This document shows positions 1 to 22,419 of a DNA stretch of 64,000 nt, piece after piece; position 1 is the first letter of the stretch, and every line of letters begins with the position of its first letter. The position numbers were made by a program, and so were the translations under genes. Source of the stretch: an uncultured Planctomycetales bacterium (GTDB lineage: Bacteria > Omnitrophota > Gorgyraeia > Zapsychrales > JAHFFX01); the NCBI GenBank assembly GCA_964612665.1, contig CAZTCI010000001.1, positions 712,624-776,623 on the forward strand, given 5' to 3'. A model generated the notes under the pieces. That model saw only the letters and a program-made list of their open reading frames with translations, made no database searches and had not been told where the DNA came from.

Positions 1-3000
1 TTTCCGCTTATAATATTCGCGTAGGCATTTGACTCTCCGGAGGCGGTTTTAATATTCGCAAGATCAGAAATTGTACCGCTTTTAATAACATTGTCCTTGG
101 CATCACGTATAGTAAGGTATTTCAGAGAGTCGTCTTTTCCATTAATCTCAAATGTATTAACAATCTTTTCACCCGAGGGCGCGAGATCGGTTCTGTTGAC
201 ATATAGTGGGAAGCTTGTTGATGCCTGATGATAGGTCTGATCGCCAAGATTAATGACAAGCGTTTGTCCATCGGATGATTTAACAACAGCCACTTGACCT
301 TTATCAGCTTCTGCGGTCATTGTTACTTGTGGATTTTGTAAACCTAAATTCTTTGCAAACGATTCAATGGTCTGTGGCGCGCCGTTCTCTTTATTTAAAA
401 GAACAATGGAGCCTTCTTTTAATTCCGCATCCTGTTTAAGTTCTCCGTTGATAACTGTACCGGGAATATACATGATCGCCGCGACTTTTTGTTGCGGCCC
501 CATATCAGCAGCCAATTCAGAGGGGTGGATAGGCTGGCCATTTTCGCCGATTAAAACTTTTTCAGCTTTGTCAATGTGTGTTTGATCAGGGTAGAAATGA
601 AGGACTTTAGGATTATCAACATCCGCCAATAAAACACCATTTTCACTGACGGGGCGATCTGGCAACATGGCAGATGCATGATTTCTATCGAGAAGCGGAG
701 CCAACTGTCCATTTTCATCTTTACCAATGGTGGCATGAACAATCATATCTTCAGGACTAATAACAGTGTCGCCCATCATGATGGTTGTTCCAGGCTTGAG
801 CTGCAGTCCCTTTAAATAAAATGAATCTCCATTTTGAGCAAAAACATCAATGGAACGATTGCTGCCATCTCTTTGATAACTTTTAACAACAACTCCTTCA
901 AGTTGGCGTCCATCGTCGGCGATGGCCATACTGGATCCTACAACTTTTCCATCATTACCAACATCATAAATCTTAGTGATCTGAACCGTCTGGACAGCTT
1001 CAGGTTGAGGTGATGGGTTCATACCGGTTAAGTCTTCTGACGTACTCGCCGTCTCGATGTTGACTGGTTTAGGCGCACCAATAAATTCTAAAGTTCTTAA
1101 AATCGGAACTCTTCCACCAGCTTGTTCAAAATGGGCACCAGGGCTTACCGCGGTCGAGTTTAAAATATTATTAGCATCCGTCACTGCAAAAGCAATGCGC
1201 TGCGCTCCGCCATTTACCGAAATTAAGGAATTGTTCGCTGAATCTACATTTTCAACAAACGTAAAATTATTTGGCTTTCCTGGAATGGGAACTTTCCCGC
1301 CAGCTTCGTTTTTATTTTCCTCTTTATTACTCGACATAAAATCTGGATTATAGACTGATCCTTTCGTACCATAGTATGCGTATTGCGGTAATAAATCTGC
1401 TTTAGTCCTGGCTGCGCTACTATACACATTATCAATTCCCGCAATCTGTAGAATGGCTGGGTGATTGCTAGCATCAAAGGTCTTTAAAATCCCTTTGGCT
1501 GTCGATTGTGCAGCGTCGGGAATAAGCGTGCTGGTTCCGTCTGTATTTCGAACAGAAAATTCTTTTCCTCCTTCTGTAACCGAAATGTTTCCCTTCACCT
1601 CTTTGCCTTGCCAATTAACTGAGGCTGTGCCTTCCCTCTTCCCCGTAAAATACGACCCCCAATTCCCATACAATCCCAATCCCCCGCCGGCGGTGACGAA
1701 AACAATGCCACCATTTTGATCAACAAAGACGTTACGATCTTTTGCAACAAGGGATAAAGTCGTTTTTCCGTCCGCGCTAAGAATGGCGTTAGAAGTACTA
1801 ATAGGCAGAGTTTTACCTTCATTAAGGTCGCCGGACTTAACAAATAAAACCGTTCCTGGGGTGCTCAGCGGCAATGGGAGTGTGCCTTGCAATGAGGGGT
1901 GGAACAAAATATTAAGATTAGGCGAAAGTGGCGCCCCGAATTGATTGATTAATTTTGTTGCAGCCGCACCATCCGACGGATTTGCCATCAATAAATCGAT
2001 GTTTCCTTTTCCTTTAAGTAAGATCGCATGTGTACCGCCTTCTACTGGGACCGCCCCACCACCGGACGATTCGCTGCCTTCTTGTGTCTCATCGATTTTA
2101 TGCTGACCTTTCAGAGTAATACCACTCGGCATATACAAGGACCCTTGGCCCAATAAGGTCAATTCTCCTTCTTTGCCAATTTTGACGCCAGTAAATTTTC
2201 CTTGTTCTTTTTGATTAAACCCTCGGGCAAACCCAAACCACCCGTTTATATCTAATCCTGAAAATTCTTCGGGTCCGACGGCTAATGGATTGTTTAAACT
2301 AATCACACCATTGTTTAAGACAACGCGTTTTGCATCAGAACTGGCAGCGCCGGCACCTGCTAAAATTTTATTCCCATCCCAAATGCCCGGCCCGGTGATC
2401 TTATACCCAATGATTCTTGAAATATCGGTTGCGAATTTACCATTTTTATTAAGATGTGCTCCATACCGATACGTTCCAATTTGTGAAAATGATGTCCATG
2501 GGATTGGATTTTCTTTAGATAGAACGGTCCCTGCCTTAAACGTAAAAACATTTGTTCCTCCAAAGGTCTCTCCTGGACTTAATACCGACAAGGAATGCCG
2601 TAAAAGTTGCACATCATGACCTGCGAATCCTTCACCAATGGTGATCTTTGCTCCATCTTCAATATTTCCGAAAAGATTAAGCAATGCACCGGCGAGAAAG
2701 GCGTATCTAAAATCTCCCTGAGCGATAAATCCAACATCCCAAATATTCCCTTTCTGGGATTTAATCGGTTGTAATTCAACATTTGACCCTGTGGCATCAA
2801 TTCCAACTTCCTGTGTCTGTGATTGTTTTTCTCCCTCACCGTAGAGGCCGCCTTCTTTTTTGTTGACGGTCTCTTGTTTTAAATTTTCTTCCAGGGTTAA
2901 GTGCCTGGTTGTGACATCGGCATCCGAAGAATAACCAGCAGCTTCACCTCGACGGGTCACACCTTCAAGACTGCTGGTACTGTTATTCGCCAGACTCAAT

Positions 3001-6000
3001 TCAGTTGGTTTTTCACCTTCAGCTAATTTTTCTAAATAAGGCTGCGCTGTAATCCGATCAATGTTACGATCAACGATTTCAGAACCATGGCCAAATAAAA
3101 TAGGAATACCTTTTTCACCGCTTGTTCCGCCAAAAATTTCGGCTTTGACTTTTTGTACAGGGACTGAATCTCCTTGTTCAAGTCCTATATGTGTCAACAC
3201 TGAGTTAGCTAACTCTTCGGGCGTTGATGATTCGATTGTCCCTTGAGCATTGTGAAAAATATCGTCGCCTTTTTCTGAAGCAACAAATTCACCTTTGCCG
3301 TTGTAATGTCCTGCAACATATGTATGGCCTGTCCAGCGTAAAACCGTTTTGTCCTGCGAATAATTCATAGCCATGGCCACTTTGGTCAAGGCAGCTTTAG
3401 TCTTATCTTCGATGACTTGGCCGTCCTTTTTAACTAACGTTTCCTTATTACCGCTGGTGTATATAACATTCACATTAGAAAAATAAATTCCGGGATCTAT
3501 ATCGGTTTTAAGAATATCTTTTCCTTCTTCCGATTTATCTTTTCTTAAGGTTATATATTTAATTCCCTTTTCACTTTTCAATTCCTCTTTTCGACCATAG
3601 AGTGGTTCTTTTAATGGGTTATAACCCCAATGTTGGTCGTCGATATATAGCTTACTACCATTCCCAAAAATAACTTCGCCGCCGGGAAGCTCCATAAAAT
3701 CCTCAGGCTTAGCCAAATTGATACTAAACAATTCAGGGGCGAGACTTCCAATCCCGGGAGCAAAATATCCAAACATTACCTCCATGGCCACATCTGGAAT
3801 TTTTCCTCCTTGTGAACCACCCATTGAACGAGCAAAGAAAAGAGAATTAGCTTCAGGGTTCTTATCTTCAGAGTCATAAACTAAAACAGGATTAAATGTA
3901 TAGCCCTCCAACTTGCCTCTATCATCGACCTTCAGTTCTAAAGTCGAACTCTTTTTTCCTCCAGAAGTTTCAGCTTCACCCGCTTTGGCATAACCTCCTA
4001 GCACTTTTTGATCATTAATAAATAAAGCTGAAAACATCTTGCCGGTAATATTGCTCTGTTTATTAATTTGTTCTGGACCCACTGTAGTCCCCAACCATTG
4101 GGTCGCAAGCCCTTCACCTGGAAAATTATTAGTTAGATTGAGAGTATTAAAAACATTTTCAGCTTCATCAGAATTTTTATCCGACTGTTCGAGCGCAACT
4201 TTCGTCGCATTTTTCGACTGAAGCGGTAGCCATGTTTCTTTGTTCCAGACTACATTGGTATTTCCATTTGGTTGGGGCATATAATAGAAAAATGTGCTGT
4301 CGAGAATGTTTTCTTTTTTACCATCTTCCTTTGTGACAGCAAGACCGCGATTCGATGTATTTTCCTGAAAATAAATTTTTCCATTAGAGTCGCCTTCTTG
4401 AGCTAGAAAAGATACGGTGGTATTAATGCCATCCCCTTGCGCAAAAAGTTTCGCCACGCCACTCGAAGTCAACGCCAGTCCAGCGGCTGCTGGAGACATC
4501 GCGGCATTGACAACTTTGGCTTCTTGAGGATTTTCTTCGCCGGGATTAATTTGACCAAAAATATTACGCAATGCCTTAACCTGCGCCAACGCTCCGGCCT
4601 GAGCAAAATAATTACCCGTCGCTATTAAACCGATTGTCTGCCCGCCGGGAAGAGAATAGCGGTCCACTGAAAAATCAAACTGCGGGCCTAAGTTATCGTT
4701 ATTAAATCCTATGGTTCTGTTGAAATGAATGTCGTGTGCCAGTTCCTCTGTTTTGTAAACCAATTTTTCAAAAGGTACCATTTCTGTTCCCGAAAGCATC
4801 CAATCATCCTTCACTTGAACATTAGCTGCTTCCTTCTCAGCGTCGGCGCGTGCAAGGCCCGCTTTATCCATTAAAAATTTAACTTTCGTTTCTTCTAAAG
4901 GCTCATTCGTACTTTGATTTAGAACCATTGTTACATATTGCGGGGTCGTCTGTCTCGCCTCGCCGATCATGCGCGTTAAATTTTGCACGCCTCCATTTTG
5001 CTGGCCGTTAATGTCAAAAACTTGTTGGGACAATAAAGATCGAGTGGACGAACCTTTGTAAGCAACAGTTAAAGCGTTCGTTGTTTGAGATTGACCTAGA
5101 AGCGCACCTAAAAATGGGCTGCCTAAAACGGGCAGGGCTTGAGTGTTCGCGGCTTTAAACCAAAAATTAAATTCTCCGCCGTTATTAATAATTGAACGGA
5201 TCAAATCGGGGCTGACTGTTCCTGTCAAAACAGGTGAGCTTCCCATAATCGACTGGACGGTTGGTATGATTCCTCCGTTATCTTTAAAAGGTTGTCCATC
5301 CGGACTAACAAGCACCGTTGGCAAGTTAACAAGGGCAGGACCAGAGGCAGAAATGCTCTGCAACTTATTAATCAATTTATCTAATTCTTTAGAAGATATT
5401 TTCTCGAGATCTTCAGGAGTGGCGTTATATTTTTGTTGCAATCGATTTAAGACAGCCTGTTTATCTGATCCTGATCCTGGTCGCAATTGAATTAACAGAC
5501 CCGCCAATTCTTTTGCCTGTGCCGGGCTCAAATAAACTTGCACACCGACCTTAGCTAAATCCATCCCCAACTTGGCAAAATCACCAGCATTGCCTGCTTT
5601 CCCATTAAATAAACTTAAATTCCAAACCTCGTTCCCATTTTTATCCTCGGCGACGTTCCCTAAAACATTTTTAGTCCCCAGCAAATATCTCAAACCAACT
5701 AAATTAACCGCCGTCATTTTACTTCCATCAGGACCGACGTTGGTCGCCCATGCCACGCGCCACTTTTTTCCGTCGTAACTAGGAATCCAACCGAGCCGGC
5801 GCGCGGTCATTCCCCATCGAGTTACGTCTATGAGCGGGGTCAAACCATATTCCAAAGCGGTCCTAACATTGGTGACATTGCCTGCGGGCAAACTGACATC
5901 TGTCAGATATTTCATCGGACCAGTACCGGGATTGATGACTGTAAAAAGTTGTTGAAGATATTCTTCTTGCAGTTTCTTTTTGGTGACAGGGGTGTCTGGT

Positions 6001-9000
6001 TGAAAGTTAGGAAGATCATAGGCGGATTTAATACGGACATACGGCATGTTGGGCCGACGATTGGATTCTTTAACGCTCTTCCAAATTTGATTTGCATTAT
6101 CGACAAACTGCAGATCAAATTGGCTCATGTGAACGAGCTGATCGACATAGCCAAGATAATTAACCAGTCCAGGAGTGTAGCCAGTCAAATTATATTCGGA
6201 TGTGTACTCGCCTTTTTCATCGGGGATAAATTTAGATCCGGTAAACCAGCCGCCGAGGGAATTCTGGGTAAAATTCATCCCGACAAAATTGCCGCCTAAA
6301 ATCTGAAATTGATTGACGGGCGCATAGAGAATCGTTTCTAAATTAGAGGCAGTGAAATCGCCTCCGTTAGTAAAGATCACATTATTATTGATGGGCGCTC
6401 GAAAATAATTAGAGTTACTTTCATCGACTGTCTTCCATTCAATCTTACTCACATCGACTGCCTCAGTATTGCCGGGCATATTAGCTTCGTCTCCCGTTGC
6501 CGTTGATGCGCCAACCGCGGCACCGCCTACAAACAAACCTGAAACCAGAAAAGCCAGTGCGCGGAATTCAGTCGGAGAAAGTTTAGAATGATACGGACTC
6601 ATGTGCGTGTCTTTCTTGTCAACGAGTTGCTTTTCAAGAAGACTCATAAAACCATAAATGGTTGCATTAACTGCGCCGGCCTTGAGCGCTTCCCAAACTT
6701 TATCACCCAGTTGAGCCGAGGGAATACCTCCGCTCCACACACCGTAAGCAAAGGCGCCGGTGGTGGAGCCGGCTTGCTGTAAAATCTGCGCCGCAGCACT
6801 GTCTGCTTTCAAACCGAAAGCACCGACGGCCGCGGCGGTAACAATAGCTCCGATACTCTGACTGGCTAAAAGTGGCAACTGAGTTTGAATAACAAGATAT
6901 AAAGCATCTGAAACAGATTCCGGAGCAAAATTTGGATTGCTATTATAGTTTTCCACAACAGATTGATGATAAGCGGCTGCTTTGATCGCTTGTTGTTCTT
7001 GCGGACTAAGAACTTTTCCATTGCTTTGGGCTTGAAGAGCATCTTGAGCATCTTGGTTGGCTTTATTGGCGAGCTCATGATTCTCCATGCCAAACTCCGC
7101 CCCGAATTTAGTGCCAGCATAATTATCTAAAAATGCAACTCCCCAAGTAAGGGCAACGTTGCTTGCAAAACTACTTAAGCCAGGAACCAAAAACTGTTTG
7201 AGAGATTTTGCGACTTCGCTGTTTTTATCGCCAAATATTTCATCGACGAGATTAAACACTCCAAACTCGACCAAACCTTTAACCTCACCAAGAACAAAAC
7301 CTTTAGCAAATTCTTTTCCAAAACCTGTTAAGACTTGACCAAGGGTCAAAGCAGGAAAAGATTTAGGCACGGCATAAGTTAAAACGCCATAACCATTCGG
7401 GATATTAGGGGGGGCTGTTTTCCGAACAAATGCTCCTCCTTCGGCAGTTAGCTTTTTTGCAGTAGCTTCACTCGTTTCAGATGCTACTTGGAACTGTTGA
7501 TCTTGCGTTGCGTCTTTAGCTAAATCCTTACTTAATGCTTGTTCCGATTGGTTACTTTGCTCTCCAGGATTCAAAGGCCCACCGCCAGGTTTGATCGTGT
7601 TCGCTGCTGCCGTCGTAGGAACATCCACCGGAGTCCAGGAACCGCCCCACAATTTAACTAATTTATCCATGGCCCAATTCAAAACTCTTACTAAAGGCGC
7701 ATAAACATACGCCGTCAATAAATTTTTAACCATCGTCCAGGCTGTTGCCAAACTCTTTCCAATTGACTGCAACATGCCGCTAAGAGTGACATTACCAACG
7801 CCAATGTTTCCTAGCGAAGTGATGCTGGTTTTGAGCATATCAGTTAACCAGTCCCCGAGTATACGGCGTGACAGGCTTTCCAAACCTGCTAAAAATCCTT
7901 GACTCGAGGCGGCTGCAGAGCTCAAGTTAACAGAATCAAGACTAGCGGCCCAATTCATTCCTGCCGACAACGCCGCACTCAACCCAACATTCAACAAAAA
8001 CCCAGTCGTCCCGTTACAAGCGCCTTTCATCTGGCAAATCGTGGTCAAAGTTTCCGCAAGCGCGGAGGCGCTCATCGCAATCACCCATGCCGCTTGAAAA
8101 GTTAAATTTGACCCAAAACCCATCATGCCAGCCACGTTTCCACCCACAGCCAGCATCGCCGTCTGCATCGCCACATTAATCGCAATGTCGCCCAAACTCA
8201 TTAAGCCCGGCAAATCTTTATAATGGCTGTGCCAAATAGATCCCCAAACAAAAGTCTGCATGGTCTCATCAACCGGCTCGTAAGCAATATTTTGTTTGTC
8301 CAAATCTTCCGCCAAAACAAAACCGGTTGATTGCTTAACAAAATCATCACGGCTCAGCATCATCGCATCGCCGGTGTCTGAAAAATAGACGTTCTTGTCA
8401 TCAATCTTGGTGATCATGACAAAATGCTCATTGCTGAAGTTAGCAATAAACGGAGGCTTAAGCGTTAGGATGTCTTGAGGATTTAGTTTCGCGGCCTGAG
8501 CTTTTAGGCCGTAGGCTTGCGCAACTTTGTTGATTGCAAAAAGAGAGGTTTTAAGTTTGGGTTGACCGGCTTCGATAACGTTGTTCGCAAAGTCAGCACT
8601 GAGTGTTAAAACAGAAATCTGTTCCAACGGTAAATTAATTTGATGCACATAAAGCCAATCGCGTAACGCATAGACACCGCAGTTTAATGGGTGAATATTA
8701 GGATCACGCAACCAATTGTCAATCCGTTGTATAGAATCGGAATTAAAAGATTTGGCTAACGTCAGATTGAGAGTGTACTTACTATTTTCGGATGCGCCTG
8801 TAATTGAATCAGGAATTCTTAACGCGACTTGCGTATTTTCTTGCTTGGGAAGCTGTTTTAAAAGATGTGTGAGCTCAATGGCAACTTTGGCTGTTGCAAC
8901 TGCTTGAGCTGAAAGCCCGCCATCTTCCGGGTCAACCGTGGTTTGAATATTGCGGGCGCTATTTGGATATAAAACATCAGGCCGATAGCTAAAAGACATT

Positions 9001-9236
9001 GCGGCTTCTTGCGGAATAAACGTAATCAAAACAATGGCGGCAACAACGCGAACCCAGAGTTTGATTCGGCTTATAAACGGTTTTCGGGAAAACGCAGAAT
9101 TGGCAGGATCTAATTGGGTGTCGGAAGAAAAAAAAGGACTATCTTGATTAATAATATTATTATTTATATTAGTAATCAAAGTTTCACTGTTTTCCTGAAC
9201 TTCAGAAGGTTTTTGAATGTCCATTCTGTTATTCAT
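1..9236 (-). CDS. giant (>3078 aa, 3' end beyond window) membrane-anchored surface protein: N-terminal TM helix + papain-like C39-like peptidase domain, Ala/Gly-rich hydrophobic region, then long G/N/S/T-rich beta-type region
   Basis: ATG at 9236 (seen as cat on the plus strand). Translating the minus strand gives MNNRMDIQKPSEV...RIKLWVRVVAAIVLITFIPQ (TM helix). It continues ...DNWLRDPNIHPLNCGVYALRDWL...NFSNEHFVMITKIDDKNVYFSDTGD. The Cys-Gly, His and Asp (16 residues after the His) have the same spacing as in the bacteriocin-processing C39 domains. No minus-strand stop in this frame through 9.2 kb: all minus-strand ORFs listed in the track for 1-9236 are in a different frame, and the track has no long ORF here because the reading frame never closes inside the window. 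Confidence 0.6.
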   Translation of the reverse strand, partial: MNNRMDIQKPSEVQENSETLITNINNNIINQDSPFFSSDTQLDPANSAFSRKPFISRIKLWVRVVAAIVLITFIPQEAAMSFSYRPDVLYPNSARNIQTTVDPEDGGLSAQAVATAKVAIELTHLLKQLPKQENTQVALRIPDSITGASENSKYTLNLTLAKSFNSDSIQRIDNWLRDPNIHPLNCGVYALRDWLYVHQINLPLEQISVLTLSADFANNVIEAGQPKLKTSLFAINKVAQAYGLKAQAAKLNPQDILTLKPPFIANFSNEHFVMITKIDDKNVYFSDTGDAMMLSRDDFVKQSTGFVLAEDLDKQNIAYEPVDETMQTFVWGSIWHSHYKDLPGLMSLGDIAINVAMQTAMLAVGGNVAGMMGFGSNLTFQAAWVIAMSASALAETLTTICQMKGACNGTTGFLLNVGLSAALSAGMNWAASLDSVNLSSAAASSQGFLAGLESLSRRILGDWLTDMLKTSITSLGNIGVGNVTLSGMLQSIGKSLATAWTMVKNLLTAYVYAPLVRVLNWAMDKLVKLWGGSWTPVDVPTTAAANTIKPGGGPLNPGEQSNQSEQALSKDLAKDATQDQQFQVASETSEATAKKLTAEGGAFVRKTAPPNIPNGYGVLTYAVPKSFPALTLGQVLTGFGKEFAKGFVLGEVKGLVEFGVFNLVDEIFGDKNSEVAKSLKQFLVPGLSSFASNVALTWGVAFLDNYAGTKFGAEFGMENHELANKANQDAQDALQAQSNGKVLSPQEQQAIKAAAYHQSVVENYNSNPNFAPESVSDALYLVIQTQLPLLASQSIGAIVTAAAVGAFGLKADSAAAQILQQAGSTTGAFAYGVWSGGIPSAQLGDKVWEALKAGAVNATIYGFMSLLEKQLVDKKDTHMSPYHSKLSPTEFRALAFLVSGLFVGGAAVGASTATGDEANMPGNTEAVDVSKIEWKTVDESNSNYFRAPINNNVIFTNGGDFTASNLETILYAPVNQFQILGGNFVGMNFTQNSLGGWFTGSKFIPDEKGEYTSEYNLTGYTPGLVNYLGYVDQLVHMSQFDLQFVDNANQIWKSVKESNRRPNMPYVRIKSAYDLPNFQPDTPVTKKKLQEEYLQQLFTVINPGTGPMKYLTDVSLPAGNVTNVRTALEYGLTPLIDVTRWGMTARRLGWIPSYDGKKWRVAWATNVGPDGSKMTAVNLVGLRYLLGTKNVLGNVAEDKNGNEVWNLSLFNGKAGNAGDFAKLGMDLAKVGVQVYLSPAQAKELAGLLIQLRPGSGSDKQAVLNRLQQKYNATPEDLEKISSKELDKLINKLQSISASGPALVNLPTVLVSPDGQPFKDNGGIIPTVQSIMGSSPVLTGTVSPDLIRSIINNGGEFNFWFKAANTQALPVLGSPFLGALLGQSQTTNALTVAYKGSSTRSLLSQQVFDINGQQNGGVQNLTRMIGEARQTTPQYVTMVLNQSTNEPLEETKVKFLMDKAGLARADAEKEAANVQVKDDWMLSGTEMVPFEKLVYKTEELAHDIHFNRTIGFNNDNLGPQFDFSVDRYSLPGGQTIGLIATGNYFAQAGALAQVKALRNIFGQINPGEENPQEAKVVNAAMSPAAAGLALTSSGVAKLFAQGDGINTTVSFLAQEGDSNGKIYFQENTSNRGLAVTKEDGKKENILDSTFFYYMPQPNGNTNVVWNKETWLPLQSKNATKVALEQSDKNSDEAENVFNTLNLTNNFPGEGLATQWLGTTVGPEQINKQSNITGKMFSALFINDQKVLGGYAKAGEAETSGGKKSSTLELKVDDRGKLEGYTFNPVLVYDSEDKNPEANSLFFARSMGGSQGGKIPDVAMEVMFGYFAPGIGSLAPELFSINLAKPEDFMELPGGEVIFGNGSKLYIDDQHWGYNPLKEPLYGRKEELKSEKGIKYITLRKDKSEEGKDILKTDIDPGIYFSNVNVIYTSGNKETLVKKDGQVIEDKTKAALTKVAMAMNYSQDKTVLRWTGHTYVAGHYNGKGEFVASEKGDDIFHNAQGTIESSTPEELANSVLTHIGLEQGDSVPVQKVKAEIFGGTSGEKGIPILFGHGSEIVDRNIDRITAQPYLEKLAEGEKPTELSLANNSTSSLEGVTRRGEAAGYSSDADVTTRHLTLEENLKQETVNKKEGGLYGEGEKQSQTQEVGIDATGSNVELQPIKSQKGNIWDVGFIAQGDFRYAFLAGALLNLFGNIEDGAKITIGEGFAGHDVQLLRHSLSVLSPGETFGGTNVFTFKAGTVLSKENPIPWTSFSQIGTYRYGAHLNKNGKFATDISRIIGYKITGPGIWDGNKILAGAGAASSDAKRVVLNNGVISLNNPLAVGPEEFSGLDINGWFGFARGFNQKEQGKFTGVKIGKEGELTLLGQGSLYMPSGITLKGQHKIDETQEGSESSGGGAVPVEGGTHAILLKGKGNIDLLMANPSDGAAATKLINQFGAPLSPNLNILFHPSLQGTLPLPLSTPGTVLFVKSGDLNEGKTLPISTSNAILSADGKTTLSLVAKDRNVFVDQNGGIVFVTAGGGLGLYGNWGSYFTGKREGTASVNWQGKEVKGNISVTEGGKEFSVRNTDGTSTLIPDAAQSTAKGILKTFDASNHPAILQIAGIDNVYSSAARTKADLLPQYAYYGTKGSVYNPDFMSSNKEENKNEAGGKVPIPGKPNNFTFVENVDSANNSLISVNGGAQRIAFAVTDANNILNSTAVSPGAHFEQAGGRVPILRTLEFIGAPKPVNIETASTSEDLTGMNPSPQPEAVQTVQITKIYDVGNDGKVVGSSMAIADDGRQLEGVVVKSYQRDGSNRSIDVFAQNGDSFYLKGLQLKPGTTIMMGDTVISPEDMIVHATIGKDENGQLAPLLDRNHASAMLPDRPVSENGVLLADVDNPKVLHFYPDQTHIDKAEKVLIGENGQPIHPSELAADMGPQQKVAAIMYIPGTVINGELKQDAELKEGSIVLLNKENGAPQTIESFAKNLGLQNPQVTMTAEADKGQVAVVKSSDGQTLVINLGDQTYHQASTSFPLYVNRTDLAPSGEKIVNTFEINGKDDSLKYLTIRDAKDNVIKSGTISDLANIKTASGESNAYANIISG

Positions 9237-11727: not shown

Positions 11728-12048
11728 TCAATTATCGCACTCACTCCGACGACAACCGCTAATGCTGCTTTTGATACAACCTACATTCGATAATGAAATA
11801 CAATTAAAGTTGTCTGCGCACTTTGAATCGTACCAGACGTTAAAAAATTGCGGATCGAATTTACATTCGATTGTTTGTTTAGGATCATATTGCCGGCCCG
11901 AACCAAAAGCATCACCCACAGACCGCCAGTGTCCGGCGATTCCCCGGAAAATATATTTCTGAAAAAAAATCAAAGCGCCAATGACAAAAAGAAGCATTAC
12001 TATGTACTCCATGGTAGAAACGGCTTTGTTGTTGGAATATTTTTTCAT
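11728..12048 (-). CDS. Flp-type pilin-like protein with Cys-rich C-terminal extension
   Basis: KAVSTMEYIVMLLFVIGALIF matches the class III/Flp leader (A/G-XXXX-EY then hydrophobic helix). It shares the RGIxGxWRS..D..G.QYDP motif with the other pilin paralogs; C-terminus has 8 Cys. Confidence 0.6.
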   Translation of the reverse strand: MKKYSNNKAVSTMEYIVMLLFVIGALIFFQKYIFRGIAGHWRSVGDAFGSGRQYDPKQTIECKFDPQFFNVWYDSKCADNFNCISLSNVGCIKSSISGCRRSECDN

Positions 12049-12084
12049 ATAAAGTGCGTTCTAAAACTAACTAAAATTTAATTG

Positions 12085-12347
12085 CAAATCTCAAATGTCA
12101 AAATCCAAATCAATTCCAAATTTTTTAATCCCAAACTGCTCTGACTTCTTTGTATTTCGGATAATACTACTTAAAATCAACAACAACTCTGTACTTTCAA
12201 TGATTAACCAAACCAACTCATTCTTATGTAATTCTTCCTTTCGGCAAAATTAAAGGCCCTATCATAGATGTTGAATTTTCTATTGCTTGACATTGGAAAT
12301 TTAATGATTTATTTGTCATTTGACATTTGGTTTTTGTCATTAATTAA
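12085..12347. repeat. intergenic repeat element copy 1 (26-mer caaatctcaaatgtcaaaatccaaat ... 27-mer tgacatttggtttttgtcattaattaa, with ~180-bp insert between); putative promoter/operator
   Basis: Exact 26-mer at 12085-12110 and 27-mer at 12321-12347 are both repeated at 17655-17680 and 17710-17736. TGACA-N10-TGTCA inverted half-sites. Lies just upstream of the pilin gene 11728..12048. Confidence 0.7.
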
Positions 12348-14797
12348 AACGGCGCATAATCACAGCTCACAAATTTTAAACTAAACCCGCGCTGAGTCCG
12401 GTCAGGACCTGAACCACCTGAACCATTGTGAAAGAAATATTCCGCGCACGTACGGCTCATAACCCCGTGCTCAAGGATGGCATTAACATAATCCCAACAC
12501 GCCGGGGAATCAGTGCGGCGGTTAATCATAAAAGCCTCAGGTGCTTCTTTACTGATGACATCTTTACATACAACATCCAGAGTATTTGGGCTAGGAATAG
12601 ATGATGTAACGGACGGATGTCTAAATTTATACCGCCACACATCCAGCCCCGTCGGTAATTTAATGGTTGTGTCTTTATCTTCGTCCCAGCGGATGACTTG
12701 GGATTTAACAGTTGCGCCAAGGAAACACTTCCGGGCGTTCGAATAATCGTCGGAAGAATCACAACCCCCATAAAGATGAAAGGCATCGCCGAGAGAATAA
12801 CAGCGCATCAAACCCCACATCGTCGTATACGTTTTTATCTTGGCGAGTTTTGGTTCTTTTATTGTTAAGCTCGCGTTATCCGCTTGGTAACAACGGCCGT
12901 TACACCGTCCAGGAATACGTCCGTCAACCCGCACGATATGCCATTTGGCCGAAGATTTAGAAGGATTGGTCGCCGGCGTTTTCCAGGCATAAATGGCTTC
13001 ATTAGGTAAAGGAACCAAGGCCAAATCTTCAATGCGCAGACGTTCTTTACGCAACGCCTCGCCCGCGTTAATGATGTCCGTAAAATGCGACATCGCGCTC
13101 GTGAAGAAATCTCTTAGATATTTAACTTCATTCTCGCGGGCCGCGAGAAAATTCCGTCGGCGTTGAAGTTTTGCCTGCTGATTGACACTTTCATTACCGC
13201 TTTGTACAAGTTTAGGCTGCCAGAATGCGGCGTAATTATTGCCGTCTCCCGCCGCGACGCTTGATGTTCCTCCGACGACAGGATCGGTAAAAGTATTTAA
13301 GCAGCTTCCCTTAGCTAACTTCCAGGATGCCACCGCCGCATTATAAAGAGGATTCCCTGGTCCCCATGTGCCGCACACGCCGGCATTGATGGTATAGGCC
13401 GCGGAACATGTGGCTGTTAGTCCTGAAAGATTAAGAACATTAAGATCGCAGACAATCGATTCGGTTGGCGTAAAAGTTGTTGGTCCTCCGACGGGCGGCA
13501 AGGTTCCCTGACCGATGACCGTTCCAGAAGAGTTATAACATTTATAATCCAAAGAGTTGTCCGCATCTCCAGTACTGTTCCATGAAAAGGAAGTTGGCGA
13601 ATTCGCTGGTCCTTGGCCTGGAACAAACGTTGCCGTACACGACGGACACGGACCGCAATCCCCCGGACAGTTTTTACATGTTTCCGTAAATTGCGACCAT
13701 CCTGTCTTTTCGCAGACACCGTTACCGCAAACAGGGCACGCTCCGCAATCTTGGGCACAGGTTGAACAGTCTTCATTGGCGTCGCATGTACCGTTGCCGC
13801 AGTAAGGACATCCTGCCGGATCAGCCACGCATTGTGTCATTACGTCACAAGCGTTTGGACAGCTTCTTGTTTGCAACCGTGTTCCCAGCGGACAGCCGCC
13901 TGTGCTACAAACAGGATCGCTCACCCACGACGAGCAAATACAACAATCTGGATTATCGAGAAGGCATTGTGTTGTTGCCGAACAATTATAGGTGCAGCTT
14001 CTCGTCTGGTACATATAGTTCCCAAGACAGCCCCCAGCACCGCAGCCGGCATTAGCGAAAGCGGTGCAGGAATCACCCAAACACTGCAATTGCGTCTGGC
14101 AGTTGGCAGGAATACAAGTCCGCGTCTGGCTCATTTGATCAGCAGGACAACCATTGCCGCAGCCACTATTAGCAAAATTACTACAATCGCAGGGAGGATT
14201 AATATTGGCGTAAATTCCGGTATACACATTATTGTAATTAGGACCATTATTAGTGAGCGTTAATCCGATTAATACCGTTATGCCTCCAGTCCCTCCCATG
14301 GACCATCCGTTAATTAGGGGAGCGCACTCAATTATCCATCCGCTTGTTAAACAGCCGGTATCAGTTTTTGATTGTACCCCCGTCGCTATCTGCCCGGCAG
14401 GACACGTAAGGTTGATATAACTAGAACCGGTGGGGCTCATACAGCGATTACAATTCGGTTGATTACCATTAGGAACAGCCACAAACTGGCTACCGCCACC
14501 ACACGTACCTGAGCTGGCGCCTATTCCGACGATACCATTAAAAGCGGTAACAATAGGTGTGCACGGGGCAACTATGTTGTCTGCTCTATTATCGCTACTA
14601 AAGGAGGTTATGGCTTGGTTCACTGGACACGACGAGGAAGAGTCAGCAAAAGCTTTCGAGACAGAAAGCATTAAACAAAGGGAGAAAATACTTCCAACAC
14701 TAAATAAAATCTTCGCCGAGAAAGACCGCATCAGCCCAAATTGTTTATTTCTTTTGAAATGAAACATATGTCCTTTATAAATTTTGATAAGCTTCAC
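12344..14797 (-). CDS. secreted cysteine-rich protein (817 aa) with tandem ~40-aa Cys modules; putative pilus-associated adhesin/tip protein
   Basis: N-terminal signal peptide (…SLCLMLSVSKAFA). Three tandem modules GCGxGxC…QTRxC…NC…TQC, then CGNGxC-type repeats. No recognisable enzyme motifs. Confidence 0.55.
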   Translation of the reverse strand: MKLIKIYKGHMFHFKRNKQFGLMRSFSAKILFSVGSIFSLCLMLSVSKAFADSSSSCPVNQAITSFSSDNRADNIVAPCTPIVTAFNGIVGIGASSGTCGGGSQFVAVPNGNQPNCNRCMSPTGSSYINLTCPAGQIATGVQSKTDTGCLTSGWIIECAPLINGWSMGGTGGITVLIGLTLTNNGPNYNNVYTGIYANINPPCDCSNFANSGCGNGCPADQMSQTRTCIPANCQTQLQCLGDSCTAFANAGCGAGGCLGNYMYQTRSCTYNCSATTQCLLDNPDCCICSSWVSDPVCSTGGCPLGTRLQTRSCPNACDVMTQCVADPAGCPYCGNGTCDANEDCSTCAQDCGACPVCGNGVCEKTGWSQFTETCKNCPGDCGPCPSCTATFVPGQGPANSPTSFSWNSTGDADNSLDYKCYNSSGTVIGQGTLPPVGGPTTFTPTESIVCDLNVLNLSGLTATCSAAYTINAGVCGTWGPGNPLYNAAVASWKLAKGSCLNTFTDPVVGGTSSVAAGDGNNYAAFWQPKLVQSGNESVNQQAKLQRRRNFLAARENEVKYLRDFFTSAMSHFTDIINAGEALRKERLRIEDLALVPLPNEAIYAWKTPATNPSKSSAKWHIVRVDGRIPGRCNGRCYQADNASLTIKEPKLAKIKTYTTMWGLMRCYSLGDAFHLYGGCDSSDDYSNARKCFLGATVKSQVIRWDEDKDTTIKLPTGLDVWRYKFRHPSVTSSIPSPNTLDVVCKDVISKEAPEAFMINRRTDSPACWDYVNAILEHGVMSRTCAEYFFHNGSGGSGPDRTQRGFSLKFVSCDYAPF

Positions 14798-14825
14798 GTC
14801 TTCAATTTTCTCGAAACGCTAACCC

Positions 14826-17657
14826 TCAAAACGTCTGCACAATATTGACCTGACAACTTGAACCGCCCAATCCATTTGACACGATAATCGTTTTAATTCC
14901 AGGAGTGGAATACGTCGTCGTAAAAGTAGCCGTCCCGGTCCCGCTTACCGGAGAAGCACCTCCGGCTGCATACCATTTATTAAAGGCCGGACCAAGACCT
15001 CCAGCCGCGGATACAGTCACGGTCACTGGACCGTTAAAAGCAAATGCTTGTGTCGCGGGCGAACACACAACGCCAGAACCACCCGGATTAATAACGCCCT
15101 GCGTCGGATAACATCCAACAAGTGGTCCACTTGGTCCCTGCCATGGCGTCGGACAGGTCGGTAAACTCGAACACTTTGTACAATCTCTTAAGCAAGCATC
15201 AAATGCACCAACATCCGGATCCCGGGGCACAACGAAATAATTTGTATCAAAAGGTGAAACCGGATCATTGATTAAAAGCGAGCGTGGCAGATCCGCACAG
15301 TTGCTCTCCCTGCATTTATCTGTAGCCGTACCAATTTGTCCGACGTCGGCAGATGCCGTACCGCATATGCCAAATTTAGGAAGGTTGGTTATGTTGTAAT
15401 CTAAACAGGCAAGAATATTATCTAAAGTTCCCGTGCCCATGACTGCTGATTCCGGTGCTTTCATACCCGCACACATTCCCGGCGGAGTTCCAACGTTTCG
15501 GGTCGGCCAGGTTGTTTGAATGCCGACTGTATTATTAGGAATGCACAACGCTTGATTACAATCCGTTCCTTTAAAAGTAAGGGTCAACCAATAATTCAAT
15601 TTGTCGATCCAGGCTTGATGCTGATCGCGCCAAACAAGCATCTGGCCATTTTGATCGTTATAGAATTGATCAACGTTGCCTTGGGCAACGAGAAACTGCG
15701 CCGCGGTCGGATACCATTCTCTAAATGTGGTACGCAGCGTCATCATGTCCATATTGATTAACTGCGTGGCAAATTTTATAAAATCTTCTACCCCGTAAAC
15801 AAAATCATCAAACGGATCGTCCGGCCACATAGACGGCGGACCCGCTCCCAGCTGGCCGCACATACAGGGCCCTCGTGTTCCGTCGGGAAACGTGCAAGTT
15901 GTTCCGTATTTGGCGCAGGTCGCGGCGTAAGGCCACACGGTCGAACAATAGCGGTCAGCGCCTCGTTTCCATTTTCCGTTAGTAAACGGCGCCACATAAT
16001 CCTGGCCGCAGGTTGTTGCATATTGCATGGGCGCAACGAGAAGATCTTTTGTCGGGTCAGGTAAATTATAAAGAGATTTGACCATGTCTGGCCGCAGAAT
16101 TTTCTTGGAAGTGTCAACGGGGTTGGTGTTATCAAAGATACAGGGGCCTCCATTATATAATCCCGGCGCTGTAGGAAGCGTAAACTGAGGCGCAATTTCA
16201 ACCGCCAATGAACCTGGTAAAGTTAATATCGGATTAATGTTTCCGCATCGAGGATGGGACGGGTCGCAGATATTACATTCATACCGCCGATTTTTATCCG
16301 TCGAATCGAGCAAGAGACCACCTAAGTCCATTCCCCAATCCAATAGTTTATAAAAAATCGGATAAACATACTTCACCTCGCCGGGGGCAGCGAGATCACG
16401 CGTATCATCAAAACGAAACAGCGGTTGCTCCGGATCACTGCTTTGCGCCGCCGAATACATCTTAGAAGGCACATACATATTACGCGCAGGCTGCATTCGG
16501 AAATATTGATTCTCGTCGTCCTTGCCAAAAAGTTCAAGATATGAAAATCTGTTGTTAGAACTGTCTTCAAAAACAGAATTATAAACGTAAGGATAAGAAG
16601 AGCCATAGGGGGACGTCGCCGCACAATGGGCGGCGCCTGAATAGCCGCAGCGGACGGTAGGGTCTGGATCGTCGCAGCATTCTGGCACTGTAGAAAACGC
16701 AAGGCAGGAGCTCGAACTGGCGCAGCCCGTCGTCGGGTCAGGATCATCACAACACGCCGGGCGGCGCGGATCGATTTGGTTTTTATCAACACAACAGGGA
16801 TTACATTCCGCCGGCGGATCATTACTGCAACAAACATGCGCCGGATTTAAACTACAATCAACCGGGTCCCAAAGAAAATTAAGATAACCTTTAAGTGCAT
16901 CAATAAATGCTTGGATCGCGGCCTCGTCGGGTAATGACTGCTGCATCGATTCAAGCCGCTTAGTATAATAAAATCCAAACCGGCTGACCTGGTCGCCGCC
17001 GTTAACTTTGGTTCCAGAAGCAGTAACATAAGCACCATCTAAATCCATGTCGTGAAGATCGTCAATTTGTCCGGGATCTGTGACAACATTTTGTAAAGCG
17101 GCTAAGATTCCCCGCTCCAAAAATCCATCGGTTTTGGGCATGTTTGCGAACATTTTATTCCAAATTGAAGTTAAGCCTGGCTGGACAACTGTTATTTGCA
17201 AAGCCAATGCGGCTGTGGCGACGGCAAGAGCAAGAACGGCGAGCGTTTGAGACATTATAGCAATTAATTCATATTGCTGAAGAACCACAATAACAGCTAT
17301 TGCAACTACAATAATTAATATTTGCAAGACTCCGGTAAACCCACAGATCGTCAAATCACTTCCCGCGCCTTTTTCTCCGCCGAGCTGAGTTTGATAAAGT
17401 TGTTCCGTGTAACTGGCATAACTGGATGCCATCAATGCGGCGCTGGCGTTAGAAGCGACGGCTGTCAGAGTTTTTAATTCAGCGGATTTTCCAAAATTGA
17501 GAGATATCGCAAAAAAGATAATGCTGATGGCGGAGAGAAGAATCAAAATGAGGGCGACTTGGCCGTTGTTCTGCGAAGTCGAACGCGTGGATTTTCGAGA
17601 ATGAATTAATTTTTTAAGGAACCTAAGCACTCTAGATCCTCGAGAGGTTAATGACAA
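14826..17657 (-). CDS. membrane-anchored cysteine-rich protein (943 aa) with pseudopilin-like N-terminal hydrophobic segment and CCDDPDPT repeats
   Basis: Track ORF starts at a TTG inside the repeat element, so the true start is probably downstream. N-term …NNGQVALILILLSAISIIFFAISL, a second TM, then Cys-rich ectodomain. 28 bp upstream of the 817-aa gene, so probably co-transcribed. Confidence 0.5.
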   Translation of the reverse strand: MSLTSRGSRVLRFLKKLIHSRKSTRSTSQNNGQVALILILLSAISIIFFAISLNFGKSAELKTLTAVASNASAALMASSYASYTEQLYQTQLGGEKGAGSDLTICGFTGVLQILIIVVAIAVIVVLQQYELIAIMSQTLAVLALAVATAALALQITVVQPGLTSIWNKMFANMPKTDGFLERGILAALQNVVTDPGQIDDLHDMDLDGAYVTASGTKVNGGDQVSRFGFYYTKRLESMQQSLPDEAAIQAFIDALKGYLNFLWDPVDCSLNPAHVCCSNDPPAECNPCCVDKNQIDPRRPACCDDPDPTTGCASSSSCLAFSTVPECCDDPDPTVRCGYSGAAHCAATSPYGSSYPYVYNSVFEDSSNNRFSYLELFGKDDENQYFRMQPARNMYVPSKMYSAAQSSDPEQPLFRFDDTRDLAAPGEVKYVYPIFYKLLDWGMDLGGLLLDSTDKNRRYECNICDPSHPRCGNINPILTLPGSLAVEIAPQFTLPTAPGLYNGGPCIFDNTNPVDTSKKILRPDMVKSLYNLPDPTKDLLVAPMQYATTCGQDYVAPFTNGKWKRGADRYCSTVWPYAATCAKYGTTCTFPDGTRGPCMCGQLGAGPPSMWPDDPFDDFVYGVEDFIKFATQLINMDMMTLRTTFREWYPTAAQFLVAQGNVDQFYNDQNGQMLVWRDQHQAWIDKLNYWLTLTFKGTDCNQALCIPNNTVGIQTTWPTRNVGTPPGMCAGMKAPESAVMGTGTLDNILACLDYNITNLPKFGICGTASADVGQIGTATDKCRESNCADLPRSLLINDPVSPFDTNYFVVPRDPDVGAFDACLRDCTKCSSLPTCPTPWQGPSGPLVGCYPTQGVINPGGSGVVCSPATQAFAFNGPVTVTVSAAGGLGPAFNKWYAAGGASPVSGTGTATFTTTYSTPGIKTIIVSNGLGGSSCQVNIVQTF

Positions 17658-17736
17658 ATCTCAAATGTCAAAATCCAAATGAATTTCAAATGTTTTAATT
17701 TCCAAACCTTGACATTTGGTTTTTGTCATTAATTAA
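17652..17736. repeat. intergenic repeat element copy 2 (compact form, same 26-mer and 27-mer as copy 1)
   Basis: 17655-17680 and 17710-17736 identical to copy 1 motifs; immediately upstream of/overlapping annotated start of the 943-aa gene. Confidence 0.7.
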
Positions 17737-17848
17737 CGCTGTGTGCAAGTTTCTCTTTATCCGTTTGGGGATTTCAGCCTAAATTAGCCAAGTCGCGAGA
17801 AAATGAAGCTAATTCCCTATGTAGAAAAAAACTTGCACATCGCGTTAA

Positions 17849-18118
17849 TTACCAATTATTAAACACCAAATTCATCTTTGTGCCCCGATAAAAATCGCCG
17901 TCTAACTGATTGATCGGGCTGTTTGTATCTAAGCCTTGCCAGCTCTCCGAAACAGGCTTAATCAAAGACTTCTCATGCGCATCCCGACGGTAAACAAGGT
18001 CCAGCGCTGACCATCGAAAAGCCTTAAGGCAGGCATAGCCGAGCAATAAAGCAATGATGATGCAAAATGTAAATTCGAGAGTCACCTGCGCTTTTTCTTT
18101 GAACATCTTGTTGTCCAT
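17849..18118 (-). CDS. TadE-like pseudopilin (about 90 aa)
   Basis: Internal Met gives MDNKMFKEKAQVTLEFTFCIIIALLLGYA (A/QVTLEF + hydrophobic helix). Track ORF 17849..18235 has an implausible upstream extension overlapping the next gene. Confidence 0.5.
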   Translation of the reverse strand: MDNKMFKEKAQVTLEFTFCIIIALLLGYACLKAFRWSALDLVYRRDAHEKSLIKPVSESWQGLDTNSPINQLDGDFYRGTKMNLVFNNW

Positions 18119-18149
18119 TCTTCGGTTAAGGTGAAGAGGCCCGTTTCGG

Positions 18150-18662
18150 TTAACGGTAACGGTTATCGGTTTTTTCAAAATTACTCCATGCCTCAGCCAA
18201 TTTATAAATCTGGCGACCAGATTTATCGTAAGCATCTATCAATTCATCGCAAAGTTTTATATCTACATTCTGTGGATAAATATCTCTACTTTGACTCAAA
18301 CTTACAATCATTTCATTAGATTCAGCCATTGCATCATCGAGATATTTTTGAAAGCCAGCTTTTTGATGCCGCTTTGCATATCCTTCAGCTATTAACCGCG
18401 GAATTGCTTTGGAAGCTCGGCGGAGCTGATCTATTATTGGCCTTTTCCTTTCCAAAGAAAGGTTGTTCTTTTCGTCATCGAAGAGAAAAGGCCTAATATT
18501 GAGTTTTGTTGCATCCTTTGGATTTACAAAACTCAATAAATCATCTTCTTCGCATTTTGGCAGACAGGGAAGAATCTTTTGCATAACAGTGGTCATTGAT
18601 TTATAACTATCTTGATAAACTGTTAAATCTCTAAAGCTGGTAATTCGCTTCTTTTCTTCCAT
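18150..18662 (-). CDS. four-helix-bundle protein (23S rRNA intervening-sequence protein / bAvd-like family)
   Basis: SFRDLTVYQDSYK … DQLRRASKAIPRLIAEGYAKRHQKAGFQKYLDDAMAESNEMIVSL matches the conserved QLrRAavSIpaNIAEGygR…F…A.GS..E core of this family. Confidence 0.65.
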   Translation of the reverse strand: MEEKKRITSFRDLTVYQDSYKSMTTVMQKILPCLPKCEEDDLLSFVNPKDATKLNIRPFLFDDEKNNLSLERKRPIIDQLRRASKAIPRLIAEGYAKRHQKAGFQKYLDDAMAESNEMIVSLSQSRDIYPQNVDIKLCDELIDAYDKSGRQIYKLAEAWSNFEKTDNRYR

Positions 18663-18733
18663 AAGTTGTCTCTCACGTTGCCTTAACCAAAAACCGAAAC
18701 CGGCTTCCTAACCTTAACCTAAAAATTCACAAA

Positions 18734-20119: not shown

Positions 20120-20387
20120 CAGATCTGTCGACGCGGTTGGTCCAGACTCCGTTCAGCGTCGTGTCATTAACCGCAACAATTTGCATTTCTTCATTGGCAA
20201 CACGGCTATAGTTAATAATGGTATTTGAAACGCGCGGATCGTATTGGTCTCCTAAATCATCAACTGTACTTCGCCACCGTCCGGAGATGCCTCGTTTCAT
20301 ATAATTGCTCATCGCAATAAAAGCACCAATGATGACCATTATCAAAACCGTGTATTCAATCGTCGATTGTCCTTTGCGTTTAAACAT
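20073..20387 (-). CDS. Flp-type pilin paralog G (104 aa)
   Basis: MFKRKGQSTIEYTVLIMVIIGAF… (G/QSTI-EY); KRGISGRWRSTVDDLGDQYDP family motif. Confidence 0.7.
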   Translation of the reverse strand: MFKRKGQSTIEYTVLIMVIIGAFIAMSNYMKRGISGRWRSTVDDLGDQYDPRVSNTIINYSRVANEEMQIVAVNDTTLNGVWTNRVDRSDALETKTGDTIIGGY

Positions 20388-20423
20388 TGAATCCTCTTTT
20401 ATTTGAAAAGAATAAAAACAAAT

Positions 20424-20837
20424 TTAATTATCCGCATTAATGGTGTTTGAAAAACCTAAATTTGAAACTGAATTGGATATAACATCGCCGGAATCATTGT
20501 AAATAAAATCAATGGCGCCGGAATTTTCTTTCCGGCTTTTATTTGTATTAGACCTCGTCGCTGAATAGGCCTGCATCAAATAGCCGCCGTAAGGCACGAT
20601 CCGCTGGTCAGATTCATTTTGTATGCCAACCTGATCAGCCGTGACCTTAATAACACTTTGAATACCGCGCTTACAAGCGTTAAACATCGCAAACAAAACC
20701 ATGGTCACAATTCCAATTAAAAGCATGTACTCCATCATGCTCTGAGCGGTTTTATTTTTTAAGAAATATAGACGGGTGGACTCGGAAGAAGCCGCCGTTT
20801 CCGTCAATAAGAATTTTTTTTTATCGACAAATTTCAT
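20424..20837 (-). CDS. Flp-type pilin paralog F (start uncertain, up to 137 aa)
   Basis: …KNKTAQSMMEYMLLIGIVTMVLFAMF (A/QSMM-EY); CKRGIQS… motif; start codon overlaps stop of paralog E (TAATG). Confidence 0.55.
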   Translation of the reverse strand: MKFVDKKKFLLTETAASSESTRLYFLKNKTAQSMMEYMLLIGIVTMVLFAMFNACKRGIQSVIKVTADQVGIQNESDQRIVPYGGYLMQAYSATRSNTNKSRKENSGAIDFIYNDSGDVISNSVSNLGFSNTINADN

Positions 20838-21226: not shown

Positions 21227-21400
21227 GTCTTGTTGCTATCATTTTTGTAATTATATTTGTAATAAAAACGGCTATGATTCTGGTTTTGCTGAACGTTAAA
21301 AAGTGCTGTCCCAAAAAACATGGCTTACCCCTCGTCGGGTGACGATTGAGTAAGCCATGTTTTTTGATCTATAGAACAACCCAACTCTATTACCGACGAG

Positions 21401-21724: not shown

Positions 21725-21782
21725 TGATTAGTCCTCCTTAAAATTAGACATAAAGTTGCTTGCTTAACAAATGAAGCGGGTA

Positions 21783-22390: not shown

Positions 22391-22419
22391 TTATATTCCT
22401 CCTTGAACAAATAATGACG

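Follow-up and report, generated by a model that had tools for sequence, protein, structure and literature searches.

An archaeovorin-like giant protein of Omnitrophota with a conserved N-terminal head and an apparently active C39-type peptidase

We analyzed a 64,000-nt stretch of the genome of an uncultured Omnitrophota bacterium (contig CAZTCI010000001.1 of assembly GCA_964612665.1, positions 712,624–776,623; hereafter the window), the left edge of which holds the 5' part of a very large open reading frame (ORF). Its product, the giant protein, is an archaeovorin-like Omnitrophota giant protein with a conserved N-terminal "head," and the head carries what is apparently an active C39-type cysteine protease. 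Reading from the N terminus, the head would comprise a variable cytoplasmic extension, a Sec export signal, a periplasm-facing C39 domain, and three hydrophobic segments with a Cys-x5-Cys loop (Table 1). The head most likely serves in self-processing of the giant protein or in freeing it during export, a reading to which we give about an even chance. Omnitrophota giant proteins are an open problem: whether they work as one chain or in pieces, how they cross the envelope, and how they act on prey. As the sole part conserved across the family, with invariant protease residues, the head offers the most practical experimental handle on this question. An earlier note made from the letters of the window alone had reported the C39 fold at the N terminus and proposed that it processes either the giant protein itself or the neighboring pilins. 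That central observation and both functional ideas are already in the literature, and the giant protein itself is a new sequence. The window contributes a clean example with a complete upstream Tad-like locus, and it adds several details: a likely periplasmic location, a probable signal cleavage site, an absent oxyanion-hole Gln, the Cys-x5-Cys loop, and an orphan Cys-free body.

The ORF, as read from the sequence, runs for 3,078 codons without a stop inside the window, which rules out a frame interruption. A public contig from the Logan assembly of SRR12313478 is 100% identical to the window across 10,806 nt, and the gene called on it is the same gene as the giant ORF. Because this contig carries the gene at 3,894 amino acids (aa), the frame is uninterrupted and the protein extends past the window edge, measuring at least 3,078 aa in the window and at least 3,894 aa on the identical contig. 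The unbroken frame presumed in the earlier note is thus confirmed. Recovery of the full ORF beyond the window succeeded in part, since the extended call is itself still ended by a contig edge. The strings quoted in the note lie where it had placed them (LWVRVVAAIVLITFIPQ at residues 60–76, NCGVYAL at 185–191, and EHFVMITKIDDKNVYFSD at 270–287). Its interval for the domain, 8410–9236, was too short, however; it stops at residue 275 and leaves out the last third of the C39 domain, including Asp287 (8376–8378) and the domain end (~8301).

Assignment to the C39 family was supported by profile and structure comparisons. Pfam PF03412 matched residues 222–308 (46.5 bits, gathering score 22; E = 4e-12), spanning only profile positions 37–126 of 133 and omitting the Cys-bearing start. 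PDB sequence searches with the head were weak, because that Cys-bearing start is poorly matched. We built an AlphaFold2 (AF2) model of residues 55–345 from an alignment of 13 family members, which had a mean predicted local distance difference test score (pLDDT) of 80.7, with the core above 90. The top Foldseek matches of the model were C39 domains only, namely LahT (6mpz; E = 1.7e-6), followed by PCAT1 and ComA. These being solved C39 domains, the papain-like C39 fold surmised earlier is upheld, and a chance match to C39 was ruled out by the above-threshold Pfam score together with the structural matches. An hhalign comparison of the family profile with ComA (probability 89.5%), for which the register was checked on the ComA peptidase sequence of PDB 8hf4 (residues 1–151), aligned Cys186 with Cys17, His271 with His96, and Asp287 with Asp112. 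His271 was also aligned with the His of LahT and of PCAT1. In the AF2 model Cys186 is the first residue of helix 132–143 (fragment numbering), and His271 opens a β-strand, as in papain-like enzymes. The triad therefore lies in register with that of ComA, and the His-to-Asp spacing of 16, pointed out earlier as typical of bacteriocin-processing C39 domains, is the spacing found between ComA His96 and Asp112. Judged from these alignments, the N terminus of the giant protein is apparently an active C39-type cysteine protease.

The description of the domain as catalytically intact needs qualification: it is accurate for the Cys/His/Asp triad, which is present and invariant in 81 relatives, but not for the oxyanion hole. 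The oxyanion-hole Gln, six residues before the Cys in ComA, is replaced by Asn180 in the giant protein, and this column is not conserved across the 81 sequences (E18, D16, N15, S14, G7, A5). The family also departs from canonical C39 structures (125–150 aa) in having an N-terminal extension of ~65 residues, which these lack. In the AF2 model its elements are H56–74, E81–87, E100–106, and H112–122 (fragment numbering), at pLDDT 79–93 except for a block of 54 in the hairpin loop (segment 92–95, <50). A 15-residue insertion in the C39 core holds the invariant Asp215 and Lys229. The tail that follows the core and packs on the domain is strongly conserved (Trp331 99%, Gly332 100%, Trp335 93%), with pLDDT ~91–92 up to residue ~334.

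We then considered how widely this architecture is distributed. A word-indexed search returned 12 and then 25 relatives, all partial, from sources named Candidatus Omnitrophica or Omnitrophota. A scan of one genome per species gave 89 loci. We kept 80; Omnitrophota metagenome-assembled genomes account for nearly all of them. In an exhaustive profile search of 1.84 billion cluster representatives, 181 clusters matched at E ≤1e-30 and 381 at E ≤1e-10. The same architecture is present in at least 181 sequence clusters, almost all of them from Omnitrophota, so what had been called unusual is standard in the phylum, and it had already appeared in a 2023 preprint. The peptidase core starts within the first 250 residues in 94% of the 158 listed representatives that begin with Met. 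Representatives reach 7,820 aa, although most end at contig ends. In 75 of the 80 related loci the ORF was still open where the available DNA stopped, having reached ~3,650 aa or more in loci with 10 kb of fetched sequence.

The 81 closest sequences are 32%–48% identical, and Asn185, Cys186, Glu270, His271, Phe272, and Asp287 are 100% invariant among them (81/81). Across the wider family (171 domain instances from 164 cluster representatives) the Cys is kept in 162, the His in 158, and Asp or Glu at the third position in 148 (Asp 128, Glu 20). Because the triad is invariant in the 81 sequences and largely kept in the 171 instances, catalysis is under strong purifying selection across the family. 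Six representatives (P0070, P0090, P0094, P0135, P0140, and P0163) have two or three internal copies of the C39 core in place of a single N-terminal one, located in large relatives at ~residues 600–770 and 1520–2000.

Ahead of the peptidase lies a segment with the features of an export signal. Residues 1–54 are probably a non-conserved cytoplasmic extension preceding it, and in relatives the start of the module ranges from ~residue 20 to 136. A classical signal peptide has an n/h/c layout and follows the −3/−1 rule at its cleavage site. In the family, the n-region is a basic stretch, S-R-F-K-x-W-I-R, before the hydrophobic core; the core, free of charged and strongly polar side chains, is 12 residues long in the giant protein and in 76 of 78 relatives; and the c-region ends S-W-A in the consensus and A-M-S in the giant protein. 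The segment has a Kyte-Doolittle hydropathy of 1.8 over 19 residues and is predicted as a helix by AF2. It runs into a near-invariant motif at residues 75–86 (Pro75 99%, Gln77 99%, Trp80 96%, Ala81 98%, Tyr84 100%, and Pro86 97%–98% in 78–81 relatives), which we propose as a putative signal peptidase I site plus conserved mature N terminus. Ser stands at −3 in 71 of 78 relatives and Ala at −1 in 76 of 78, and the giant protein reads A-M-S followed by F.

The n/h/c layout and the fit to the −3/−1 rule make the hydrophobic segment look less like a stable anchor than like a Sec signal peptide that can be cleaved and that is preceded by a long N-terminal extension. The idea that the protein is anchored here by a transmembrane helix does not sit well with an uncharged core of just 12 residues that is followed by a signal-peptidase-like site; the real anchors more likely come after the protease. 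The positive-inside rule places the C39 domain on the periplasmic side whether the segment is cleaved or not, and we infer that the domain faces the periplasm.

Three hydrophobic segments follow the peptidase, with median 19-residue hydropathies of 1.79, 1.15, and 1.47 in 78 relatives, and probably anchor the head in the membrane. The loop that joins the last two of them holds a pair of cysteines, Cys401 (kept in 64 of 78 relatives) and Cys407 (59 of 78), which with Cys186 make up all the cysteines in the 3,078 aa of the giant protein. Beyond the head, two further hydrophobic segments, at residues 789–807 and 891–913, are also candidate anchors, and similarity soon fades. In a phmmer comparison with the 80 relatives, coverage was full over residues ~50–400, then dropped to ~14 sequences at residue 450, to a few as far as ~1100, and to none or one beyond residue 1150, where weak similarity was found in only two relatives (L013 and L006). 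No homolog of residues 1751–2650 was detected among 5.8 billion proteins. Searches of the visible 3,078 aa with Pfam and NCBIfam returned nothing besides C39, and a SecA domain was not found by Pfam. Single-sequence AF2 of body residues 2130–2650 was unusable (pLDDT 33). By these comparisons only residues ~50–450 are conserved and the body is an orphan, as one would expect if a trafficking or processing module were attached to variable cargo.

The giant gene is the last of a Tad/type II secretion system (T2SS)-like locus on the same strand. From 32771 down to 9922 the locus encodes a Flp-type protein with a Cys-rich domain, a Rotamase_2 peptidyl-prolyl isomerase (PPIase), RcpC, a secretin, a TadZ-CpaF fusion ATPase, seven small Flp-type pilins, several large Cys-rich pseudopilin-like proteins, and TadB-like and TadC-like platform proteins; it appears complete and is flanked by housekeeping genes. 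Among the 61 related loci with ≥3 kb of upstream DNA, 56 have a TadC-like gene upstream on the same strand, 0.45–4 kb away, and the order pseudopilin-TadB-TadC is also kept. Some 12 proteins of the locus have class III/Flp-like N termini of the form G/A|XXXXE[YFL], in which the bar marks the cleavage position of the prepilin motif. Five of these leaders have Ala at −1 in place of the near-universal Gly (11728–12048, 17849–18235, 18734–20119, 20424–20837, and 31725–32771, all on the minus strand), and the remaining seven have Gly. The −2 residue is K, R, L, T, E, or N, and never Gly. An A24 prepilin peptidase (TadV/CpaA/PilD) was not found among all ORFs of the window, which also holds no unexplained multi-transmembrane ORF.

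Much of this arrangement is known from the phylum. West-Roberts et al. 2023 (bioRxiv 10.1101/2023.11.21.568195) described N-terminal C39 domains near predicted signal peptides in Omnitrophota giant proteins ("Archaeovorins"). According to the same preprint, a conserved secretion system of >10 subunits lies ahead of the giant genes; it includes gspD/E/F, rcpC, a Rotamase_2 PPIase, and numerous genes with class III signal peptides. Self-cleavage of the proteins was already hypothesized there. Giant proteins of this group are further marked by lengths of tens of thousands of residues (39,678 aa for one protein of Velamenicoccus archaeovorus LiM), many transmembrane segments, a SecA_DEAD-like domain, and PilZ genes downstream. 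A 2026 preprint (bioRxiv 10.64898/2026.06.07.730766) lists an architecture cluster of 24 proteins with PF03412 as well as Tad cassettes on the flanks of giant genes, and Seymour et al. (PMC10066038) described both a Tad complex and giant ORFs from the phylum. The giant protein resembles Archaeovorins in its N-terminal C39 domain beside a signal-like segment, its few other domains, and its upstream gspD/E/F-like, RcpC, Rotamase_2, and class III genes. It differs from those known so far in that its head is 34%–48% identical to the nearest public relatives and its body is without detectable homologs.

Outside the phylum, the closest structural likeness is to exporters of the peptidase-containing ATP-binding cassette (ABC) transporter (PCAT) or ABC transporter maturation and secretion (AMS) type (LahT 6mpz, PCAT1 4ry2, ComA 3k8u/8hf4; MEROPS C39). 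Their C39 domains are fused to an ABC transporter and cytoplasmic, whereas that of the giant protein is joined to no ABC transporter and is predicted to be extracytoplasmic. ABC_membrane and ABC_tran domains were not found in the 3,078 aa, and NCBIfam PCAT models scored 12–29 bits against cut-offs of 500–850. The giant-protein family further differs from PCAT/AMS domains by its non-conserved oxyanion-hole position and its N-terminal extension and core insertion. A double-glycine leader was not found among the pilin-like proteins of the locus. FapD of the Pseudomonas Fap system is a Sec-exported periplasmic C39 protein whose catalytic Cys is required for outer-membrane secretion (Rouse et al. 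2017, PMC5557850). Its substrates, too, have no canonical GG leaders, and the head is like it in its predicted export. FapD is a small stand-alone protein in the fap operon, however, whereas the C39 domain here is fused to a giant ORF; the NCBIfam FapD model NF058616 scored 19.2 bits against a cut-off of 330, and no fap genes were found in the window.

A functional parallel is LapG, a Cys-His-Asp protease of the BTLCP family that acts in the periplasm and cuts the giant adhesin LapA at its N-terminal retention module. The head would follow the same logic, in which a periplasmic cysteine protease cuts a very large, Cys-poor surface protein near its N terminus and so controls its release. LapG differs in belonging to another peptidase family, in being a separate protein, in serving type I secretion, and in its regulation by LapD and cyclic di-GMP. 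Polymorphic toxins contain papain-like and other peptidases within very large secreted proteins, with autoproteolytic release in cis (Zhang et al. 2012, PMC3482391), and like the giant protein they join conserved trafficking parts to a variable remainder. Their peptidases usually lie just upstream of the C-terminal toxin and not at the extreme N terminus, and a toxin/immunity pair is not visible in the giant-protein locus.

We favor self-processing because the peptidase is fused to giant ORFs, is the sole conserved part of them, and has invariant catalytic residues, and because it sits at the membrane-proximal, first-exported end and there are precedents for periplasmic cysteine proteases. The signal-like segment, the Cys pair conserved in the loop, and the Cys-free body are all signs of the export side. 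In this scheme the head would be exported first, its signal probably being cleaved after S-W-A (A-M-S in the giant protein), and the peptidase would fold on the outer side of the inner membrane and then cut its own giant polypeptide, in cis or between neighboring copies. The cut would free the protein from its membrane tether or split it into working pieces. We infer that the substrate is the giant protein itself and that the activity is coupled to the Tad-like machine, such that the cut may coincide with hand-over to the adjacent secretin-containing apparatus.

Several observations weigh against this scheme. A k-mer survey found no recurrent motif shared by the bodies of the 81 family proteins, and GG, GA, and GS occur at chance frequency in the giant protein (for GG, 33 observed vs. 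29.6 expected). With the canonical oxyanion-hole Gln absent, activity could be weak or specificity different. If all three post-peptidase segments span the membrane, much of the body could be cytoplasmic, beyond the reach of a periplasmic protease. Cleavage of an Omnitrophota giant protein is also not known from any experiment.

The position of the gene after TadB/TadC homologs could also reflect a role in trans, with the head serving, like FapD, as a maturation protease for other parts or substrates of the Tad/T2SS-like machine and, in the extreme, removing pilin leaders in place of a prepilin peptidase. C39 enzymes accept Gly, Ala, or Ser at P1, which gives weight to the five leaders with Ala at −1, as does the missing A24 peptidase in a window with a complete Tad-like locus. 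FapD provides the example of a periplasmic C39 acting on non-canonical sites of secretion-system partners (PMC5557850). We nevertheless find such a role rather doubtful, since no leader has Gly at −2 and permanent fusion to a hypervariable giant protein would be odd for a housekeeping pilin protease. A24 peptidases remove prepilin leaders on the cytoplasmic face, whereas the C39 domain, lying after an N-in signal, is predicted to be periplasmic. Type IVa pili are, moreover, nearly universal in Omnitrophota (PMC10066038), so a PilD is probably encoded elsewhere in the genome. Pilin processing by the C39 domain, one of the two roles suggested in the earlier note, is thus unlikely: the leaders are without a double-glycine site and are cut on the cytoplasmic side, the opposite of the predicted location of the domain, and inspection of the neighboring pilin-like proteins for GG, GA, or GS cleavage sites found no GG-type leader.

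Omnitrophota have been predicted or shown to be predators, and their giant proteins have been proposed to attack prey envelopes, so the C39 domain might instead be an effector, a protease or isopeptidase delivered with the giant protein against prey surface proteins or cell-wall peptides. C39-related toxin domains (Tox-PL-C39) do occur in polymorphic toxins (PMC3482391). Those domains are found at variable C termini, however, whereas the C39 domain of the giant protein lies N-terminally, close to the membrane and beside the export signal and hydrophobic segments, in what is the best conserved part of the chain, and its best structure and sequence matches are leader-processing C39 domains and not toxins; we consider an effector role improbable. 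Least probable is a non-catalytic role of the type of the HlyB C39-like domain (CLD), in which the head would only bind or chaperone the unfolded giant protein or a partner. CLDs are defined by the loss of the catalytic Cys. The same distinction between CLD and C39 is drawn in the FapD paper (PMC5557850). We rejected the HlyB type given that Cys186 is present and that not one of the 81 sequences departs from the Cys/His/Asp triad; the purifying selection on catalysis argues against it as well. Self-processing might, finally, be one side of a broader scheme, in which the head would be a hitherto unrecognized trafficking-and-release module that couples hypervariable cargo to a Tad-derived machine without a prepilin peptidase of its own, the C39 domain serving as the dedicated processing enzyme of this machine and cutting the cargo and possibly also the leaders with Ala at −1; we offer this as a long shot.

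Table 1. Features of the giant ORF and its upstream neighborhood, with positions in the 64-kb window
Feature	Position	Strand	Basis or remark
Giant ORF	3..9236	minus	ATG at 9236, open to left window edge
N-terminal extension, residues 1–54	9075..9236	minus	Poor alignment, variable length among relatives
Signal-peptide-like segment, residues 55–81	8994..9074	minus	Basic n-region SRIKLWVR, 12-residue uncharged core, c-region
Motif P-[ED]-Q-x-S-W-A-F-N-Y-N-P, here PQEAAMSFSYRP, residues 75–86	8979..9014	minus	Near-invariant in family
Family-specific extension of peptidase domain, residues 110–176	8709..8909	minus	Helix, β-hairpin, helix
C39 (papain-like) cysteine peptidase core, residues 177–312	8301..8708	minus	Pfam, AF2/Foldseek, hhalign
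Asn180, canonical oxyanion-hole Gln position (ComA Gln11)	8697..8699	minus	hhalign register
Catalytic Cys186 (apparent), N-C-G motif	8679..8681	minus	Aligns with ComA Cys17
Catalytic His271 (apparent), E-H-F-V motif	8424..8426	minus	Aligns with ComA His96
Catalytic Asp287 (apparent)	8376..8378	minus	Aligns with ComA Asp112
Conserved tail packed on domain, residues 313–345	8202..8300	minus	Consensus F-V-W-G-x-x-W ... L-P-G-L
Three hydrophobic Ala/Gly-rich segments, residues 346–436	7929..8201	minus	Hydropathy in relatives
Cys401-x5-Cys407 loop, residues 401–407	8016–8036	minus	Between second and third hydrophobic segments
Hypervariable Cys-free body, residues ~451–3078	3..7886	minus	Orphan, without recognized fold
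Gap between TadC-like stop and giant ORF start, 686 bp	9237–9921		Relatives have 0.45–4 kb gaps at equivalent place
TadC-like platform gene	9922–10806	minus	PF00482 T2SSF match
TadB-like platform gene	10819–11682	minus	PF00482 T2SSF match
Rest of Tad/T2SS-like locus	11728..32771	minus	Pfam matches, class III signal-like N termini

Some further features of the locus deserve mention. The gap between the TadC-like gene and the giant ORF contains no credible small ORF, and its only Rfam match was at chance level (E = 0.69). The Tad-type secretin (27608–29827, minus strand) has Secretin and T2SS-T3SS_pil_N domains and two C-terminal TonB_C domains, an unusual fusion that would link the outer-membrane channel to peptidoglycan or to TonB-box partners. 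Next to it, a 722-aa ORF (25435–27603, minus strand) fuses a TadZ/CpaE-like ParA/MinD domain to a CpaF/TadA secretion ATPase. Between the ATPase and the pilin array lies a 554-aa ORF (22908–24572, minus strand) with no Pfam or PADLOC match; the PADLOC defense models matched neither this ORF nor the head.

Three large Cys-rich proteins are encoded on the minus strand at 12344–14797 (817 aa), 14826–17657 (943 aa), and 31725–32771 (348 aa). They have no Pfam match, at least the 943- and 348-aa proteins have pilin-like N termini, and such proteins are kept in order upstream of TadB/TadC in 45–50 of the 80 related loci. These pseudopilin-like neighbors contrast with the nearly Cys-free giant protein. 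An ORF matching PF05635 (23S rRNA intervening-sequence protein; 43.6 bits) lies between pseudopilin-like genes at 18150–18662 (minus strand).

Finally, the window includes the chromosomal origin region (32943–48593). Its minus strand encodes dnaA (43040–44386), dnaN, gyrB, and gyrA, and its plus strand yidC, parA, and parB. The stretch that holds the Tad-like locus and the giant gene starts ~10 kb from dnaA, and the same proximity to dnaA has been reported in V. archaeovorus LiM (PMC10066038).

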